Origin: Escherichia coli
GTDB lineage: Bacteria > Pseudomonadota > Gammaproteobacteria > Enterobacterales > Enterobacteriaceae
NCBI RefSeq assembly: GCF_041248615.1
Contig: NZ_CP158426.1
DNA length: 64,000 bases
Direction: 5' to 3' (one strand)
The notes beneath the pieces were generated by a model that was not told where the DNA came from, did no database searches, and saw only the letters and a program-made list of their open reading frames with translations. The position numbers and the translations under genes are program-made. Below are positions 1 through 51,212 of this stretch, piece after piece (the stretch's first letter is position 1; each line of letters starts with the position of its first letter).

Positions 1-134
1 TGCATGGCGTTGCCTCATAATCATGTAATGGGATAACAGTTTACGAACCCGTTATGGCTTTATATGTGATCTGAATCTCATTAATTATGCAACGCGTGAA
101 ACTTACATCAAAAATGCGCGACGCATCGCAAATT

Positions 135-1261
<1,127 letters not shown>

Positions 1262-1355
1262 TTAATTCGTAAAACGTGCTACCGATCACATTAAGAATTC
1301 TCAGCATAGTTGAATTTTAGGGACGTAACCTCGGGCGAGCGCCCAGTTCAGCACA

Positions 1356-2264
1356 CTAATTCTGCTGTAAAAAGTGCAGAAACTGACTTAAAGCATAAGA
1401 AGGCGTTTCGTTATTGCGCCAGAACACACCGACGCTGCCTTTCTGTTCTATCTTTGGCAGGTTGAGGATCACCAGTTGTCCCTGGCTGGCATAACGTTGC
1501 GCCAGGCGTAATGACAAAATAGAGATCATATCGCTGCTTTGTAACAGGTTGGTACTGACGTTCATCGACGCCGACTCAATCGTGTTTTCTGGCAGCATCA
1601 CGCCGTGGTCTACCAGCGCATTATCAATACTGATGCGAATGGGGGTACCTGTCGGCCAGACTATCCACCGCCAGTTAGCAAGATCATTCCAACTGAGGGT
1701 GGCGTATTTCGCCAGTGGATGCTCAGCACGGGCGACAAAACACACCGGCTCGGTGTAGAGCACCTTATAATTCAGTGGCAGCTGCAAGGCGCGACCGCCA
1801 ATTCGCCCAACGACCACGTCGACAGAACCTGCCAACAGATCTTGCAGCAATGGGGTCATAACCTTCTCTTCAATATTCAGGTGTAGAGTTGGCATCTCCT
1901 TGAGCAAATGCAAAATCGCCTGGGATACGCAGTCAGTGGCGACGGGAGAACAGCCAATTTTCAGACTGCCGACCAGCCCACCTTGTTTAAAACGGGCCAG
2001 TTCATGTTGCGAGCGCTCCATGTCATTGATTAACCGCTGGGCATGTTGCAATAACAATCTACCGCCTTCGGTAGGGCGTAACCCTTTGCTGTGCCGCTCA
2101 AAGAGTGTGAGGCCGATCTCATCTTCGAGTTGTGACAACCATTTCGACAGCGCAGGCTGGGTGATATTCATCATCCGCGCGACATGGGTCAGATTGCCCT
2201 GTTCACCCAGCGCCACCAGCATTTGCAGGTGATGAAGCTTTAGTTTCTGCGCCCAGTTTGCCAT
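1356..2264 (-). CDS. mhbR: LysR-family transcriptional regulator, divergent from the catabolic operon (MhbR-like)
   Basis: N-terminal HTH (LKLHHLQMLVALGEQGNLTHVARMMNITQPALSKWL) followed by a LysR substrate-binding domain; divergent to the transporter gene; start set at Met17 of the ORF. Confidence 0.75.
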   Translation of the reverse strand: MANWAQKLKLHHLQMLVALGEQGNLTHVARMMNITQPALSKWLSQLEDEIGLTLFERHSKGLRPTEGGRLLLQHAQRLINDMERSQHELARFKQGGLVGSLKIGCSPVATDCVSQAILHLLKEMPTLHLNIEEKVMTPLLQDLLAGSVDVVVGRIGGRALQLPLNYKVLYTEPVCFVARAEHPLAKYATLSWNDLANWRWIVWPTGTPIRISIDNALVDHGVMLPENTIESASMNVSTNLLQSSDMISILSLRLAQRYASQGQLVILNLPKIEQKGSVGVFWRNNETPSYALSQFLHFLQQN

Positions 2265-2390
2265 TTGCCATAACCTCCAGGTTATCTCTCTGCCCGAAAT
2301 GCCATTGTACATTTCATCTCTTTAATCACAATATCGCAACATACATAAAACAAAAGAAACATCTACCTTACCTGCACTGAGGCATTTACT

Positions 2391-3749
2391 ATGACTCAAC
2401 GACGTGATTTACAAGCACTGATCGATGCTGCTCCGGTCGGCAAGATGCAGTGGCGCGTTATCATCTGCTGTTTTCTGGTGGTAATGCTCGATGGTTTAGA
2501 CACCGCGGCTATCGGCTTTATCGCCCCTGATATTCGCACTCACTGGCAACTCACCGCAGGCGATCTCGCCCCGCTTTTTGGCGCGGGTCTGCTGGGGTTA
2601 ACCGCAGGCGCACTGCTTTGTGGTCCGTTGTCCGATCGCTTTGGCCGCAAACGGGTGATTGAGCTGTGCGTCTTTTTGTTTGGCGCGTTAAGCCTCGCCT
2701 CGGCTTTCTCACCGGATCTGCAAACGCTGGTATTCCTGCGTTTCCTCACCGGCCTTGGGCTGGGTGGCGCGATGCCAAACACAATTACCATGACCTCGGA
2801 ATATCTGCCTGCCCGCCGCCGCGGCGCGCTGGTGACGCTGATGTTTTGCGGCTTTACCCTGGGTTCGGCGTTTGGCGGGATTGTCAGCGCGCAGCTGGTG
2901 CCGGTGATTGGCTGGCACGGGATCCTGGTGTTGGGTGGCGTATTACCGCTGATGCTGTTTGTTGCACTGCTGGTGGTTCTGCCGGAATCGCCACGCTGGC
3001 AAGTGCGCCGCCAGCTACCCCGGGCGGTGATTGCGAAAACCGTCAGCGCCATCACCCGCGAGCGTTATGTCGATACCCACTTTTATCTCATTGAATCAGC
3101 CTCCGTTACAAAAGGCAGCATTCGTCAACTGTTTATGGGGCGTCAGTTACCCATCACGTTGATGCTGTGGGTGGTGTTCTTTATGAGCTTGCTGATTATT
3201 TACCTGCTCTCAAGCTGGATGCCAACGCTGCTCAACCATCGCGGCATCGACCTGCAACATGCCTCCTGGGTTACCGCCGCGTTCCAGATTGGCGGTACGT
3301 TGGGCGCGCTGGCGCTGGGCGTGCTGATGGATAAGTTCAATCCTTTCCGCGTACTGGCGCTGAGCTATGCCATAGGCGCTGTATGCATCGTGATGATTGG
3401 CTTAAGCCAGGACGGATTATGGCTAATGGCGCTGGCGATTTTCGGCACCGGCATTGGCATCAGCGGATCGCAGGTGGGGCTGAATGCGCTGACCGCAACA
3501 CTTTATCCAACACAAAGTCGCGCCACGGGCGTGAGCTGGTCAAACGCCGTGGGCCGCTGCGGCGCGATTGTTGGCTCGCTGTCTGGCGGCGTGATGATGG
3601 CGATGAATTTCTCTTTCGACACCCTGTTTTTCATTATCGCTGTGCCCGCGGCGATCAGTGCGGTGATGTTAACCCTGCTGATCACCGTGGTTCGCCAGTC
3701 GACCTCTGTCCCTGACTCACTGCCTCACGCAGGTGTTGTGAACGAATAA
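2391..3749 (+). CDS. mhbT: MFS aromatic-acid transporter (3-hydroxybenzoate/gentisate type)
   Basis: 452 aa, about 12 TM segments, MFS signature motifs (GRKR after TM2); first gene of the catabolic operon. Confidence 0.8.
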
Positions 3750-43651: not shown

Positions 43652-43782
43652 AGTAGGCATTACTTCTTAATAGTGAAAAGGGGTTAGATAGTACCAAATG
43701 GGAAAATGTTAAGTAAGTACTTCTCTATATTCTTCAGGTAAACTATCAGCTGATGGTTTATCTATACAAAAAAGGAGTCGGG

Positions 43783-44892
43783 ATGAACGAACAATCCCAG
43801 GCCAAATCACCAGAAGCCTTGCGCGCAATGGTCGCCGGGACACTGGCCAATTTTCAGCACCCAACCCTGAAGCATAACCTCACCACGCTGAAAGCGTTGC
43901 ACCATGTCGCCTGGATGGACGACACGTTGCATGTGGAACTGGTTATGCCATTCGTCTGGCATAGCGCGTTCGAAGAGTTAAAAGAGCAATGTAGCGCCGA
44001 ACTGCTGCGCATCACCGGGGCGAAAGCTATCGACTGGAAACTGTCGCACAATATCGCCACCTTAAAACGCGTGAAGAATCAGCCGGGAATTAACGGCGTG
44101 AAGAACATCATTGCGGTCAGCTCCGGTAAAGGCGGCGTGGGTAAATCTTCCACGGCGGTAAACCTGGCGTTGGCACTCGCGGCGGAAGGGGCGAAAGTCG
44201 GCATTCTGGACGCCGATATCTACGGCCCATCAATCCCCACCATGCTGGGCGCAGAAAATCAGCGTCCAACTTCGCCGGACGGTACCCATATGGCACCGAT
44301 TATGTCTCATGGACTGGCAACCAATTCAATTGGTTATCTGGTCACTGACGACAATGCGATGGTGTGGCGTGGTCCGATGGCGAGCAAGGCGTTAATGCAG
44401 ATGTTGCAGGAAACCTTGTGGCCGGATCTCGACTATCTGGTGCTTGATATGCCGCCAGGCACCGGTGACATTCAATTGACACTGGCACAAAACATTCCAG
44501 TAACTGGCGCGGTAGTGGTCACCACCCCGCAGGACATTGCGTTGATCGATGCGAAAAAAGGCATTGTGATGTTCGAGAAAGTCGAGGTTCCGGTGCTCGG
44601 TATTGTCGAGAACATGAGTGTGCATATTTGCAGTAACTGTGGTCACCATGAACCGATTTTCGGTACCGGTGGTGCTGAGAAACTGGCTGAAAAATACCAC
44701 ACACAGCTGCTGGGGCAGATGCCGTTACACATCTCCTTACGTGAGGATCTCGATAAAGGCACGCCAACGGTTATCAGCCGTCCGGAGAGCGAATTTACCG
44801 CTATCTACCGCCAGCTGGCTGACCGCGTTGCAGCTCAGCTCTACTGGCAGGGTGAAGTCATTCCAGGCGAGATTTCCTTCCGCGCGGTCTAA
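43783..44892 (+). CDS. apbC: Fe-S cluster carrier P-loop ATPase (Mrp/ApbC)
   Basis: start set at MNEQSQAKSP giving 369 aa; deviant Walker A SGKGGVGKSS; CxxC (CSNCGHH). Confidence 0.9.
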   Translation: MNEQSQAKSPEALRAMVAGTLANFQHPTLKHNLTTLKALHHVAWMDDTLHVELVMPFVWHSAFEELKEQCSAELLRITGAKAIDWKLSHNIATLKRVKNQPGINGVKNIIAVSSGKGGVGKSSTAVNLALALAAEGAKVGILDADIYGPSIPTMLGAENQRPTSPDGTHMAPIMSHGLATNSIGYLVTDDNAMVWRGPMASKALMQMLQETLWPDLDYLVLDMPPGTGDIQLTLAQNIPVTGAVVVTTPQDIALIDAKKGIVMFEKVEVPVLGIVENMSVHICSNCGHHEPIFGTGGAEKLAEKYHTQLLGQMPLHISLREDLDKGTPTVISRPESEFTAIYRQLADRVAAQLYWQGEVIPGEISFRAV

Positions 44893-44921
44893 CGCCTATT
44901 AACCATTCTGGTTATTCTTCA

Positions 44922-44963
44922 TACACCGCAGAGATGTTACATTGATGCGGTGTATTTGTTTTT
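44922..44963 (+). terminator. rho-independent terminator after apbC
   Basis: ATACACCGCA-(loop)-GCGGTGTAT followed by TTGTTTTT. Confidence 0.6.
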
Positions 44964-45154
44964 GCCGCATTAATGAACACTTATTTAATACTGCGAATAT
45001 TCTGCGGACCTTCGTCCGAAACTCTACAAAGTCGATTGATCGTACAGGCAATGCTTCATTATCATCCTTCGTGGCTGTGTAGTGGATGTACAGCTATAGT
45101 TTGTTATGCACTCATTCTATCCAGGCATAACCTTTACTACAGGGATAACGTTCA

Positions 45155-45436
45155 ATGAATAAGTATTGGCTGTCAGGAATTATTTTTCTTGCCTATGGAT
45201 TGGCTTCTCCCGCATTCTCTTCAGAGACTGCCACATTAGCGATTAATGGCAGGATCAGTCCCCCAACATGCAGTATGGCTATGGTTAATGGTCAACCTCA
45301 ACAGCATTGTGGTCAGTTAACGTATGATGTTGATACCCGTCATCAGGTTTCTTCGCCAGTCAAAGGTGTAACGACAGAAGTGGTTGTTGCAGGTAGCGAT
45401 AGCAAACGTCGAATCGTGTTAAATCGCTACGATTAA
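45155..45436 (+). CDS. yehE: small secreted protein
   Basis: 93 aa with signal peptide; matches recalled YehE. Confidence 0.8.
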   Translation: MNKYWLSGIIFLAYGLASPAFSSETATLAINGRISPPTCSMAMVNGQPQQHCGQLTYDVDTRHQVSSPVKGVTTEVVVAGSDSKRRIVLNRYD

Positions 45437-45469
45437 TTTGCCACCCTGGTTTTTTAATCGAATTTAGAA

Positions 45470-45507
45470 AGCTGAAATCATCCGTGTGAATGATTTCAGC
45501 TTTTTTA
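45470..45507 (+). terminator. rho-independent terminator after yehE
   Basis: AGCTGAAATCA-(loop)-TGATTTCAGCT followed by TTTTTT. Confidence 0.65.
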
Positions 45508-45730
45508 TTGATATCAATAATACCATTTACAAAAATCTGCATTAATTAATAGATGTGATAAATATTTAATATGCTTAAGTATTTGTTGTATTTATATTGC
45601 AATAGTTAATTTGTTTTAAATCAATAAAACAATATGTTTACATTGCTGCAACTTTTTTGATGTGAGAAATTTGTTTCCAAGAGATACAGACTCTTAACAA
45701 CCAAAAATAAATTTTATTAAGGAACATATT

Positions 45731-46273
45731 ATGAAACGTTCAATTATTGCTGCCGCTGTCTTTTCTTCTTTTTTTATGAGCGCTGGGGTATTTGCCGCAG
45801 ACGTTGATACCGGAACATTAACCATTAAAGGGAATATTGCAGAATCTCCGTGTAAATTCGAAGCGGGTGGCGATTCAGTAAGTATTAATATGCCAACTGT
45901 ACCAACCACTGTCTTTGAAGGTAAAGCTAAATACTCGACCTATGATGATGCAGTCGGTGTAACCAGCAGCATGTTAAAAATTAGCTGTCCGAAAGAAGTT
46001 GCTGGTGTAAAACTCTCGTTGATTACCAACGATAAAATAACCGGAAACGATAAGGCGATAGCCAGTAGCAACGATACCGTGGGGTACTATCTCTATTTAG
46101 GTGATAACAGCGATGTCCTGGATGTTTCTGCACCTTTTAACATTGAGAGTTATAAGACAGCGGAAGGTCAATATGCTATTCCGTTTAAAGCAAAATACCT
46201 GAAGCTGACAGATAATTCAGTGCAATCAGGTGATGTGTTATCTTCTCTGGTTATGCGTGTGGCGCAGGATTAA
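45731..46273 (+). CDS. yehD: fimbrial major subunit (chaperone-usher pilus)
   Basis: 180 aa, signal peptide, fimbrial subunit fold with a Cys pair; first gene of the yehDCBA operon. Confidence 0.85.
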   Translation: MKRSIIAAAVFSSFFMSAGVFAADVDTGTLTIKGNIAESPCKFEAGGDSVSINMPTVPTTVFEGKAKYSTYDDAVGVTSSMLKISCPKEVAGVKLSLITNDKITGNDKAIASSNDTVGYYLYLGDNSDVLDVSAPFNIESYKTAEGQYAIPFKAKYLKLTDNSVQSGDVLSSLVMRVAQD

Positions 46274-46309
46274 TAAATAAAATTTCAAGTTTCTCCAGGT
46301 AATAAACAT

Positions 46310-46336
46310 GGCCGCTATCCCCATGGCGGCCTTTTA
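46310..46336 (+). terminator. intra-operon attenuator hairpin between pilin and chaperone genes
   Basis: GGCCGC-(10 nt)-GCGGCC followed by TTTT; typical of fimbrial operons after the major subunit gene. Confidence 0.5.
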
Positions 46337-46353
46337 ATTTAAGAGGCATTAAG

Positions 46354-47028
46354 ATGAAAGGATTATTTGCTTTACTCATTTCTTCTATGGTCCTTCCTGC
46401 ACATGCCGGTATTGTTATCTACGGGACGCGCATTATTTACCCGGCAGAAAATAAAGAAGTGATGGTGCAGTTGATGAATCAGGGAAACCGTTCTTCGCTG
46501 CTGCAGGCGTGGATTGATGATGGCGATACGTCGTTACCACCAGAAAAAATTCAGGTTCCTTTCATGTTAACGCCACCAGTGGCAAAAATAGGGGCAAATT
46601 CCGGGCAGCAAGTAAAAATCAAAATTATGCCGAATAAACTGCCCACTAATAAAGAGAGCATTTTTTATCTGAATGTTCTGGATATTCCACCAAATAGTCC
46701 AGAGCAAGAGGGCAAGAATGCACTGAAATTTGCAATGCAAAACAGAATCAAATTGTTTTACCGGCCTGCGGGTATTGCACCGGTAAATAAAGCGACATTT
46801 AAAAAGTTACTGGTAAATCGCAGTGGCAATGGATTGGTGATAAAAAATGACTCAGCAAATTGGGTGACGATTTCGGATGTCAAAGCTAATAATGTCAAAG
46901 TCAATTATGAAACTATTATGATTGCCCCCTTAGAAAGTCAGAGTATTAATGTCAAAAGTAATAATGCGAATAACTGGCATCTGACCATTATCGATGACCA
47001 TGGCAACTATATTAGTGACAAAATTTAA
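46354..47028 (+). CDS. yehC: periplasmic pilus chaperone (PapD-like)
   Basis: 224 aa, signal peptide MKGLFALLISSMVLPAHA, chaperone motifs (RIIYP...). Confidence 0.85.
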   Translation: MKGLFALLISSMVLPAHAGIVIYGTRIIYPAENKEVMVQLMNQGNRSSLLQAWIDDGDTSLPPEKIQVPFMLTPPVAKIGANSGQQVKIKIMPNKLPTNKESIFYLNVLDIPPNSPEQEGKNALKFAMQNRIKLFYRPAGIAPVNKATFKKLLVNRSGNGLVIKNDSANWVTISDVKANNVKVNYETIMIAPLESQSINVKSNNANNWHLTIIDDHGNYISDKI

Positions 47029-47043
47029 TTGCAGGAGCTGCCT

Positions 47044-49524
47044 ATGTTGAGAATGACCCCACTTGCATCAGCAATCGTAGCGTTATTGCTCGGCATTGAA
47101 GCTTATGCAGCTGAAGAAACCTTTGATACCCATTTTATGATAGGTGGAATGAAAGACCAGCAGGTTGCAAATATTCGTCTTGATGATAATCAACCCTTGC
47201 CGGGGCAGTATGACATCGATATTTATGTCAATAAGCAATGGCGCGGGAAATATGAGATTATTGTTAAAGAAAACCCGCAAGAAACATGTTTATCAAGGGA
47301 AATTATCAAGCGGTTAGGCATTAATACCGATAACTTTTCCAGCGGTAAGCAATGTTTAACATTTAAGCAACTTATTCAGGGCGGGAGCTATACCTGGGAT
47401 ATCGGAGTTTTTCGTCTCGATTTCAGTGTCCCGCAAGCCTGGGTGGAAGAACTGGAAAGTGGCTATGTACCACCTGAAAACTGGGAGCGGGGTATTAATG
47501 CGTTTTATACCTCTTATTATATGAGTCAGTATTACAGCGATTATAAAGCGTCCGGTAATAGCAAGAGTACATATGTACGTTTTAACAGCGGGTTAAACTT
47601 ACTGGGGTGGCAACTGCATTCTGATGCCAGTTTCAGTAAAACAAATAACAATCCAGGGGTGTGGAAAAGCAATACCCTGTATCTGGAACGTGGATTTGCC
47701 CAACTTCTCGGCACGCTTCGCGTGGGTGATATGTACACATCAAGCGATATTTTTGATTCTGTTCGCTTCAGCGGTGTGCGGTTGTTTCGTGATATGCAGA
47801 TGTTGCCTAACTCGAAACAGAATTTTACTCCACGGGTGCAGGGGATTGCTCAGAGTAACGCGCTGGTAACTATTGAACAGAACGGCTTTGTGGTTTATCA
47901 GAAAGAGGTTCCTCCTGGCCCGTTTGCGATTACAGATTTGCAGTTGGCCGGTGGTGGAGCAGATCTTGATGTCAGCGTGAAAGAGGCGGACGGTTCGGTA
48001 ACCACCTATCTGGTGCCTTATGCAGCGGTGCCGAATATGCTGCAACCTGGCGTGTCGAAATATGATTTTGCGGCGGGTCGTAGCCATATTGAAGGGGCGA
48101 GCAAACAAAGTGATTTTGTCCAGGCGGGTTATCAGTATGGTTTTAATAACTTATTGACGCTGTATGGCGGATCGATGGTCGCGAATAATTATTACGCGTT
48201 CACTTTGGGGACTAGCTGGAATACACGCATTGGTGCCATTTCCGTCGATGCCACGAAGTCGCATAGTAAACAAGACAACGGCGATGTGTTTGACGGGCAA
48301 AGTTATCAAATTGCCTACAACAAATTTGTGAGCCAAACGTCGACGCGTTTTGGTCTGGCGGCCTGGCGTTATTCGTCGCGTGATTACCGGACATTTAACG
48401 ATCACGTTTGGGCAAACAATAAAGATAATTATCGCCGTGATGAAAACGATATCTATGACATTGCCGATTATTACCAGAACGATTTTGGCCGTAAAAATAG
48501 CTTTTCTGCCAATATGAGCCAGTCATTGCCAGAAGGCTGGGGTTCTGTGTCCTTAAGTACGTTATGGCGAGATTACTGGGGGCGTAGCGGCAGCAGTAAG
48601 GATTATCAGTTGAGTTATTCCAACAACCTGCGACGGATAAGCTATACCCTCGCGGCAAGCCAGGCTTATGACGAGAATCATCATGAAGAGAAACGTTTTA
48701 ATATTTTTATATCGATTCCCTTTGATTGGGGTGATGACGTTACGACGCCTCGTCGGCAAATATATATGTCTAACTCAACGACGTTTGATGATCAGGGTTT
48801 TGCCTCAAATAATACGGGATTATCGGGAACCGTTGGAAACCGGGATCAATTTAACTATGGGGTCAACCTGAGTCATCAGCATCAGGGAAATGAAACAACA
48901 GCTGGAGCGAATTTAACCTGGAACGCGCCGGTGGCAACGGTGAATGGCAGTTATAGTCAGTCGAGTACTTATCGACAGGCTGGAGCCAGTGTTTCAGGGG
49001 GCATTGTCGCCTGGTCGGGTGGCGTTAATCTGGCGAACCGTCTTTCCGAAACGTTTGCAGTGATGAATGCGCCAGGAATTAAAGATGCTTATGTCAATGG
49101 GCAAAAATATCGCACAACAAACCGTAATGGAGTGGTGGTATACGACGGAATGACACCTTATCGGGAAAATCACCTGATGCTGGATGTGTCGCAAAGCGAT
49201 AGCGAAGCAGAATTGCGCGGTAACCGGAAAATTGCCGCACCTTATCGCGGCGCGGTTGTACTGGTTAATTTTGATACCGATCAGCGCAAGCCCTGGTTTA
49301 TAAAAGCGTTAAGAACGGATGGGCAACCATTAACGTTTGGTTATGAAGTCAATGATATCCATGGTCATAATATTGGCGTTGTCGGCCAGGGAAGCCAGTT
49401 ATTTATTCGCACCAATGAAGTTCCGCCATCGGTTAATGTAGCAATTGATAAGCAACAAGGACTTTCATGCACAATCACCTTCGGTAAAGAGATTGATGAA
49501 AGTAGAAATTATATTTGCCAGTAA
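47044..49524 (+). CDS. yehB: outer-membrane fimbrial usher
   Basis: start set at MLRMTPLASAIVALLLGIEAYA; 826 aa usher. Confidence 0.9.
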   Translation: MLRMTPLASAIVALLLGIEAYAAEETFDTHFMIGGMKDQQVANIRLDDNQPLPGQYDIDIYVNKQWRGKYEIIVKENPQETCLSREIIKRLGINTDNFSSGKQCLTFKQLIQGGSYTWDIGVFRLDFSVPQAWVEELESGYVPPENWERGINAFYTSYYMSQYYSDYKASGNSKSTYVRFNSGLNLLGWQLHSDASFSKTNNNPGVWKSNTLYLERGFAQLLGTLRVGDMYTSSDIFDSVRFSGVRLFRDMQMLPNSKQNFTPRVQGIAQSNALVTIEQNGFVVYQKEVPPGPFAITDLQLAGGGADLDVSVKEADGSVTTYLVPYAAVPNMLQPGVSKYDFAAGRSHIEGASKQSDFVQAGYQYGFNNLLTLYGGSMVANNYYAFTLGTSWNTRIGAISVDATKSHSKQDNGDVFDGQSYQIAYNKFVSQTSTRFGLAAWRYSSRDYRTFNDHVWANNKDNYRRDENDIYDIADYYQNDFGRKNSFSANMSQSLPEGWGSVSLSTLWRDYWGRSGSSKDYQLSYSNNLRRISYTLAASQAYDENHHEEKRFNIFISIPFDWGDDVTTPRRQIYMSNSTTFDDQGFASNNTGLSGTVGNRDQFNYGVNLSHQHQGNETTAGANLTWNAPVATVNGSYSQSSTYRQAGASVSGGIVAWSGGVNLANRLSETFAVMNAPGIKDAYVNGQKYRTTNRNGVVVYDGMTPYRENHLMLDVSQSDSEAELRGNRKIAAPYRGAVVLVNFDTDQRKPWFIKALRTDGQPLTFGYEVNDIHGHNIGVVGQGSQLFIRTNEVPPSVNVAIDKQQGLSCTITFGKEIDESRNYICQ

Positions 49525-50629: not shown

Positions 50630-50657
50630 CCCCCTCTCTTCGAGGGGGCTTTTTTTC
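50630..50657 (+). terminator. rho-independent terminator after yehA (convergent with rcnB)
   Basis: CCCCCTC-tcttc-GAGGGGG followed by CTTTTTTT. Confidence 0.65.
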
Positions 50658-50994
50658 AGCGATGATAAAAAATCTCACCGTCGTAGGCTTTAATGATTTT
50701 ACCGTCGGTGTCGTTGATCAACACGTACGCGCCACCCATATAGGTCCAGTGTGTCCCGGCATCAGGCGCGGGCAGGTTACGTAACTGCCACTGCTTAATG
50801 TTGTACTCATCGGTGCGGTACATCTCTGGGACGGTATCGCCTGGTTTGAAATGCTTAAAGTCAGCAATGAAACTGCTTAACTCATACTTAGAAATTCCCG
50901 AGGTATTGGTCGAACCCGCGGTGGCTGGTGCGGCCCAGGCGGCACTGGTAACCAGCAAAAGCACACCCAGCAACATCTTATTTTTAATGGTCAT
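50656..50994 (-). CDS. rcnB: periplasmic nickel/cobalt homeostasis protein
   Basis: ORF 50656-51174; start set at MTIKNKMLLGVLLLVTSAAWA giving 112 aa as recalled for RcnB (YohN). Confidence 0.85.
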   Translation of the reverse strand: MTIKNKMLLGVLLLVTSAAWAAPATAGSTNTSGISKYELSSFIADFKHFKPGDTVPEMYRTDEYNIKQWQLRNLPAPDAGTHWTYMGGAYVLINDTDGKIIKAYDGEIFYHR

Positions 50995-51212
50995 AAACTC
51001 TCCACTTTGGGGATCTGTAATATCAGTCGCATATCTTTCCTGCCATACAATATAACTGACAAGCGATATTTTGTTAGTGATCCCATGATTTCGTAAAAAG
51101 TGTAAATGAAAGGATGCCCTAAAAGCATCCTTAGCGAGCAGAGAGTCAGCGGAAATAGCTGATTTAAGAATCATCCTGGGCTGAAGATAACATGCAAGCC
51201 TAAAGGATTGAG

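Follow-up and report, generated by a model that had tools for sequence, protein, structure and literature searches.

The 80-nt spacer between the major pilin gene yehD and the chaperone gene yehC of Escherichia coli (46274..46353, exactly the interval flagged by the original prediction) contains a stable RNA hairpin which, judged from the way it has changed across species, is under selection as an RNA structure and is the selected feature of the spacer. The reading that is considered probable is that this hairpin serves as a pilin-distal ‘leaky’ terminator or stabiliser that favours the pilin mRNA, that YehC is translated from the ATG at 46354, that a short open reading frame embedded in the hairpin (the ‘mini-ORF’) is a by-product, and that a single base pair deletion found in the hairpin loop of K-12 is neutral. 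All coordinates refer to the window, a stretch of 64,000 nucleotides of one strand of an E. coli genome (RefSeq assembly GCF_041248615.1, contig NZ_CP158426.1).

The features of the locus are collected in Table 1. The first gene of the yehDCBA chaperone-usher operon, yehD, ends in a double stop (TAA TAA, 46271..46276), the second, in-frame TAA of which (46274..46276) falls within the spacer, and the product of yehA is a 344-aa two-domain adhesin-like subunit. The K-12 gene names are used here; the naming in PMC12778044 is reversed, such that yehA denotes the major subunit. Outside the operon, yehE (45155..45436) encodes a 93-aa DUF2574 protein; this family also gives a weak hit to residues 1-44 of YehD (45731..45862; E 7.9e-4, short of the Pfam cut-off), which raises the possibility that YehE is akin to the N-terminal portion of a fimbrial subunit.

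Table 1. Features of the yeh locus in the window (coordinates are those of the 64,000-nt stretch)
Feature	Position	Strand	Basis
Gene order mrp, yehE, yehD-yehC-yehB-yehA, rcnB, rcnA		+ (yeh genes)	ORF list, K-12 comparison
yehD, major fimbrial subunit, 180 aa	45731..46273	+	ORF list; Pfam Fimbrial PF00419; RefSeq annotation of identical or near-identical loci
A/U-rich single-stranded spacer segment, 36 nt	46274..46309	+	Sequence; unpaired in centroid fold
Mini-ORF, ATG..TAA, MAAIPMAAF, 9 codons	46308..46337	+	Sequence, cross-species comparison
RNA hairpin GGCCGCTAT-CCCC-ATGGCGGCC	46310..46331	+	Terminator scan, folding, covariation, related loci
Polymorphic loop: CCCC in window, CCC K-12 type (1-bp deletion), CTCC B2 type	46319..46322	+	Alignments, allele counts
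U-rich tail TTTTAATTT	46332..46340	+	Terminator scan
Shine-Dalgarno AAGAGG of yehC, 7 nt 5' of ATG	46341..46346	+	Sequence, alignments
yehC, PapD-like periplasmic chaperone, 224 aa, 675 nt	46354..47028	+	Pfam PapD_N/PapD_C, PGAP start
Operon-end terminator CCCCCTC-TCTTC-GAGGGGG then CTTTTTTT, 3' of yehA	50630..50656	+	Terminator scan, stem folding

The original prediction had described a terminator-like GGCCGC/GCGGCC hairpin with a T tract between the two genes, and such a structure is indeed present. Its 5' arm (46310..46318) and 3' arm (46323..46331) form nine pairs, six of them G-C and one U.G, around a 4-nt loop (46319..46322). Folded alone, the hairpin has a predicted stability of -15.7 kcal/mol (z -4.0), which is equalled by none of 200 dinucleotide shuffles, and the best stem in the entire spacer is matched by none of 300 shuffles. 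The overall stability of a 111-nt segment around the hairpin is unremarkable (z -0.19), and a pattern scan for terminators across a 6.5-kb region, although it flags this hairpin as terminator-like, found three candidates where 5.5 were expected from shuffled sequence and hence no enrichment; the significance of the hairpin consequently rests on its local stem and on its conservation. A single hairpin dominates both the minimum free energy and the centroid folds, and no competing anti-terminator helix appears in the predicted folds of the spacer region. A scan of 44900..47200 against Rfam at E <= 1 returned only a sub-threshold, spurious match to a eukaryotic scaRNA (E 0.51), and the locus is single-copy, with a median of one place per genome among 4912 genomes.

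The 9-bp stem and 4-nt loop fall within the range expected of intrinsic terminators (a GC-rich stem of roughly 5-14 bp with a short loop). Six of the first eight bases of the tail are T, which is sufficient to pass the scan, and the run is interrupted by AA (UUUUAAUUU), so that if the element terminates transcription it is probably a leaky terminator. The placement of the hairpin is that of a pilin-distal element: it lies on the sense strand, adjoins the 3' side of the major subunit gene and precedes the assembly genes, approximately 10 nt upstream of the ribosome-binding site of the chaperone.

Comparison across species indicates that the RNA structure itself has been maintained. Among ten Escherichia sequences aligned over an 11-pair helix, 95.9% of cells are standard pairs, as compared to 15-63% in controls in which the 3' partners were slid by one to three columns, and three pairs have changed on both sides (G-C to A-U twice, plus C-G/U-A). 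A second clade of 11 related loci, drawn from Citrobacter, Salmonella and Superficieibacter together with second loci in Escherichia, is 98% paired and likewise displays three compensatory pairs. Both alignments contain G.U or U.G pairs, a pattern that fits only a sense-strand RNA and not a DNA palindrome. A broader survey of pilin-chaperone junctions began with a search for YehC in one genome per species, which yielded 80 loci, and left 71 analysable junctions (the window and 70 loci); in each, the spacer was taken to run from the closest preceding ORF of 120 aa or more to the chaperone start, with that ORF regarded as the pilin from its size and position only. At 56 of the 71 junctions the best perfect-stem hairpin outperforms at least 95% of shuffled sequences, the stems being unrelated in sequence, and this figure is a lower bound because the perfect-stem finder misses bulged stems (such as those of the Serratia loci L047-L049). 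The structure has therefore been kept while the sequence has varied, both in the compensatory changes of two clades and at the majority of junctions surveyed, and the same layout is found in the K-12 chaperone-usher operons at elfA-elfD, yadN-yadV and fimA-fimI. A hairpin at the pilin-chaperone junction is, in short, nearly universal among YehC-related operons.

The U tract is far less widespread than the stem. A T-rich tail (at least five T in the eight bases past the stem) is present in only 19 of the 56 hairpin-bearing junctions. Such a tract is found in E. coli in the broad sense (the window, L008 and L009) and is missing in E. albertii, E. whittamii and two further Escherichia species, in which the corresponding tail reads GCATAAATAT or ATATGAATAC; the terminator-like tail therefore seems, from these alignments, to be specific to E. 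coli in the broad sense. The same four genomes (L010, L011, L012 and L034, at approximately 2439-2506, orthologous to 46296..46359) retain the hairpin, with compensatory changes and stems of 10-11 bp. In the enterobacterial loci (the window and L008-L041), the distance from the end of the hairpin to the chaperone ATG is nearly constant (19-29 nt), whereas that from the pilin stop to the hairpin varies from 2 to 44 nt; the segment between stop and stem is some 30 nt longer in Escherichia than in the other genera of the survey. The constant distance may reflect compact packing of tail, Shine-Dalgarno sequence and spacer, or a constraint on the downstream message. One of the surveyed contigs (L020; QFQM01000522.1, 1-1980), 1980 nt in length and binned in a ‘Flavobacterium psychrophilum’ MAG, has a pilin-chaperone junction of the yeh type that barely differs from the one in Citrobacter werkmanii (L018) and is, from that resemblance, probably a mis-binned enterobacterial contig.

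Alignment of the K-12 junction with that of the window showed that the two are not identical: K-12 lacks one C of the run at 46319..46322, and differs further by substitutions at 46285 (T>G), 46286 (C>T) and 46353 (G>A). The 1-bp indel in the loop (CCCC versus CCC) that separates the two strains had been correctly anticipated; its polarity had not, since the window strain had been presented as the one that differs. The locus is carried by 4912 of 5426 complete E. coli genomes, and its loop alleles were counted with short queries, each built to prevent any other allele from seeding a match. The window-type CCCC loop was matched in 2352 genomes (758 exactly, with a further form within the same 2352, in which the stem ends in C>T and the closing pair becomes G.U, matched exactly in 1020), the K-12-type CCC loop in 2017 (1996 exactly) and the B2-type CTCC loop in 512 (510 exactly). 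The deletion is thus present in about 41% of genomes that carry the locus and 4-nt loops in about 58%, in a collection that is a non-random sample and includes many K-12 derivatives. The three CCC genomes that were examined, namely K-12, one O145 strain and one isolate from the environment, have a single flanking haplotype in common, several haplotypes carry CCCC, and the outgroups (E. albertii, E. whittamii and the two further Escherichia species) have loops of 4-6 nt of the ATTC type. On this comparative evidence (the 4-nt majority, the outgroup loops and the single CCC haplotype) the deletion is the derived state, and K-12 rather than the window strain is the variant. Recurrent slippage in the C run was considered as another source of the CCC allele, and was judged less likely than a single origin in view of the one haplotype in the three CCC genomes.

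The consequences of the deletion for the hairpin are slight, with a predicted stability of -15.7 kcal/mol for a CCCC or CTCC loop and -15.3 kcal/mol for CCC. Stability being essentially unchanged, no alteration of the pilin to chaperone ratio is predicted from the hairpin, contrary to what had been suggested originally. A separate variant, C>T at the last base of the stem (46331; seen in L003), converts the closing G-C pair to G.U and lengthens the T run to five; this is the form matched exactly in 1020 complete E. coli genomes, O26:H11 among them, and its predicted stability is lower, at -13.3 kcal/mol.

The deletion does, however, bear on the annotation of yehC. In the K-12 reference (NC_000913.3), yehC (b2110) is given as 720 nt and 239 aa, with a translation that begins MAAIPWRPFNLRGIKMKG, so that K-12 is indeed annotated with the longer N-terminus (MAAIPW...) named in the original prediction. 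The upstream ATG of K-12 is in frame with yehC because its loop reads CCC instead of CCCC, so that the extension exists only through a 1-bp deletion that most E. coli genomes do not have; the long form looks like a longest-ORF annotation enabled by that deletion, and the reference gene most likely starts 15 codons too early. Whichever allele is present, PGAP calls the short form in each of the intact PGAP records examined, namely in a K-12 MG1655 assembly and two other genomes with the K-12-type allele, and in six genomes with 4-nt loops. The sequence AAGAGG-N7-ATG is the same on both alleles and is invariant in the aligned Escherichia except for the E. coli-like L009, which has TAGAGG in place of AAGAGG; the wider context AAGAGGCATTAA(G/A)ATGAAA is conserved across the aligned E. 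coli and Escherichia sequences, with two substitutions in L009. The predicted duplex with the 3' end of 16S rRNA is stronger at the yehC start (-5.8 kcal/mol) than at the upstream ATG (-3.8 kcal/mol). At the protein level, the Pfam domain PapD_N starts at residue 19 of the short YehC, which is also the position aligned with the first residue of mature FimC and SfaE in their PDB chains, leaving a conventional predicted signal peptide of 18 aa (MKGLFALLISSMVLPAHA). An altered choice of chaperone start site, as had been proposed, is accordingly not seen in these comparisons, and the K-12-type deletion is probably without functional consequence. A literature search on the yehC start codon, or on ribosome profiling, found nothing relevant.

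Two other genes are similarly overlong in the mechanical ORF list for the window: mrp (43753..44892), with 379 aa versus 369 aa in the K-12 annotation, and rcnB (50656..51174), with 172 aa versus 112 aa, both being instances of the same longest-ORF effect as the long yehC. One further record, that of strain 99-3165 (L004, NZ_CP029981.1), has the K-12-type loop and a yehC (804-1477) annotated as a frameshifted pseudogene, in which a T run in the region of the signal peptide is one T short.

Two alternative explanations assign a function to the upstream ATG. The less unlikely of the two, itself improbable, holds that strains with the K-12-type allele make YehC from that codon, with a 33-aa signal peptide and an altered level or export. 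The in-frame fusion is real in K-12 and is annotated as such in NC_000913.3, the basic extension MAAIPWRPFNLRGIK would probably be compatible with Sec export, the 33-aa signal peptide would probably still work, and the upstream codon is also in frame with yehC, at a distance of 48 nt, in the four non-coli Escherichia. However, the central part of the extension comes from different reading frames (PWRPF in K-12 versus FMAAS in the sister species), so that there is no conserved peptide; where E. coli and two further Escherichia species have ATG as this codon, E. whittamii has CTG and E. albertii has TTG; the conserved Shine-Dalgarno sequence and ATG of the short form are retained on the K-12 allele, where PGAP chose them in all three genomes; the predicted mature N-terminus (from FimC, SfaE and PapD_N) is identical in both forms; and the upstream ATG abuts the hairpin, which should occlude it, the third base of the codon being the first base of the stem. 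The burial of that base in a stem of -15.7 kcal/mol should equally hinder initiation under the other explanation, which is more improbable still: that ribosomes translating the mini-ORF melt the hairpin and thereby permit read-through, or stop and re-initiate at yehC, making the mini-ORF an upstream-ORF attenuator. Its ATG does have an SD-like match (AGGU) 6-7 nt upstream, at -3.8 kcal/mol, the frame covers the hairpin in full and has its stop at 46337, with 16 nt left to the yehC ATG, and MAAI(P/S)MAAF is retained in the E. coli alleles with 4-nt loops. Yet the properties that such an attenuator would keep (start, frame and stop) are not kept. In addition to the change of start codon in two species, E. 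coli in the broad sense has the mini-ORF in all three frames, its ATG being 45, 46 or 47 nt away from that of yehC, and about 41% of locus-bearing genomes have the mini-ORF joined to yehC, with no visible constraint on where it ends. The palindrome determines which residues are encoded, and the changes seen among them (P/S, I/T) are non-synonymous; moreover, the predictions contain no alternative anti-terminator fold, and yehC possesses a stronger, invariant Shine-Dalgarno sequence of its own. The 9-codon ORF that had been pointed out originally is thus present as described, and its start codon, frame and peptide are not conserved. The repeated Met-Ala-Ala arises because the palindrome renders the arms ATGGCCGC and ATGGCGGCC nearly identical, and the mini-ORF is, on these comparisons, incidental to that stem.

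The preferred reading, of a pilin-distal leaky terminator or stabiliser, would operate as follows. In E. coli the sense-strand stem-loop and the interrupted U tract would together form a leaky intrinsic terminator, while the stem-loop would also block 3' exonucleases on the resulting pilin-only transcript, the outcome being a pilin mRNA far more abundant than that of the chaperone, usher and adhesin; it is this termination, stabilisation and stoichiometry that we infer from the structure and its conservation. A partial stop inside the operon, at the interrupted tail, would be followed by a full stop at the operon end, at the terminator at 50630, the seven uninterrupted T residues of which form a longer run than the internal tail. 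YehC would be translated from the ATG at 46354 by way of its own AAGAGG, and the loop deletion would do no more than fuse the upstream ATG in frame with yehC and so generate the 239-aa reference annotation. The absence of a U tract in the four non-coli Escherichia and in about two-thirds of related loci counts against a role as terminator, and since most of the related hairpins are without one, what has been conserved may instead be a function in stabilisation or processing, to which E. coli would have added termination. The nearly constant distance from hairpin to ATG in enterobacterial loci could indicate instead a function in the downstream message, at its 5' end.

That same nearly constant spacing (19-29 nt in enterobacterial loci), together with the U tract missing from about two-thirds of the hairpin-bearing loci, underlies a variant in which the element is a dual-purpose processing module that caps the 3' end of the pilin message and in E. 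coli might in addition release a FimR2-like small RNA that ties expression of the Yeh pilus to other targets, which seems unlikely. A comparably doubtful proposal dispenses with the module and regards the spacer simply as the source of a trans-acting small RNA, liberated from the pilin 3' UTR by an RNase E cut in the A/U-rich segment, which could coexist with a terminator or stabiliser. An A/U-rich stretch followed by a hairpin and a U tail is the usual anatomy of small RNAs derived from 3' UTRs, and the yeh spacer has that anatomy. Its position in the operon is also the same as that of FimR2 (NC_000913.3 4543674..4543708), which is processed by RNase E from the fimAICDFGH transcript (PMC9723502). 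Against this stand the absence of any GGA (CsrA-type) motif from the 80-nt spacer, the lack of an Rfam match, the divergence of the single-stranded part in the sister species, which also have no U tail, and the silence of the operon in K-12. Finally, the perfect inverted repeat GGCCGC/GCGGCC at the core of the stem might suggest a chance palindrome, a repeat element of the REP kind or a DNA operator bound by a dimeric regulator, an idea to which very little credence can be given. Chance is opposed by the shuffle statistics, and all three versions by the conservation of the structure with different sequences across genera; an operator was rejected on the ground that each G.U wobble corresponds to a C.A mismatch in DNA or in the opposite strand, and a REP or other dispersed repeat on the ground that there is one copy per genome (median 1, 4912 genomes).

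Searches of the literature found no transcript 3'-end, half-life or protein-ratio data for yeh and nothing relevant on yehD with a terminator, and the 3'-end mapping supplements of PMC5927463 and PMC7815308 hold no yehD entries; in laboratory culture, K-12 keeps the operon silenced (bioRxiv 10.1101/2024.06.20.599902). Yeh pili are of interest for gut colonisation and pectin binding (PMC12778044). The practical value of the hairpin and start-site findings is small. Those who express or engineer the Yeh pilus should allow for an inherent drop in transcription or mRNA stability past the pilin gene.

Set beside known systems, the yeh hairpin is an ordinary, previously uncharacterised case of a well-known type of element. 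It resembles an intrinsic terminator in its GC-rich 9-bp stem, its 4-nt loop, the U-rich tail that follows and the A-rich tract that precedes it, and differs in that its tail is interrupted, that the hairpins of the sister species are without any U tract, and that its activity is putative. Its likeness to FimR2 lies in the spacer past the major pilin gene of an E. coli chaperone-usher operon and in the stable hairpin found there. The corresponding fimA-fimI spacer (L088, 775-809) is annotated in K-12 as FimR2 (b4838), a 35-nt product of the fimA 3' UTR; FimR2 is cut out of that intergenic region by RNase E and binds CsrA (PMC9723502), whereas the yeh spacer has neither sequence similarity to it nor GGA motifs for CsrA.

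The closest counterparts are the pap and CFA/I operons. The differential stability of pap mRNA was reportedly established by Baga et al. (1988) and by Bricker and Belasco (1999), and the differential decay of CFA/I mRNA is said to have been described by Jordi et al. (1993). The CFA/I operon begins with its chaperone gene, an order unlike that of yeh; the resemblance is that a structured intercistronic element near the major subunit gene sets relative expression. Summaries in PMC5927463 and PMC4423207, the latter a review of selective RNA processing and stabilisation, report differential mRNA decay for CFA/I and, for pap, a papA mRNA of differential stability whose end is a terminator structure resistant to RNase. 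In pap, the gene past the hairpin is a minor subunit rather than a chaperone, the mechanism includes cleavage by RNase E upstream of papA (in yeh no such upstream processing is needed, because yehD is the first gene of its operon), and transcript ends and half-lives have been measured. What the two share is a stable stem-loop placed between the major pilin gene, which it directly follows, and the assembly genes; in pap this structure ends a pilin-only transcript and gives a high ratio of pilin to assembly proteins. With a hairpin at most YehC-related junctions, only about one-third of which resemble intrinsic terminators, the present survey modestly generalises the pap and CFA/I model.
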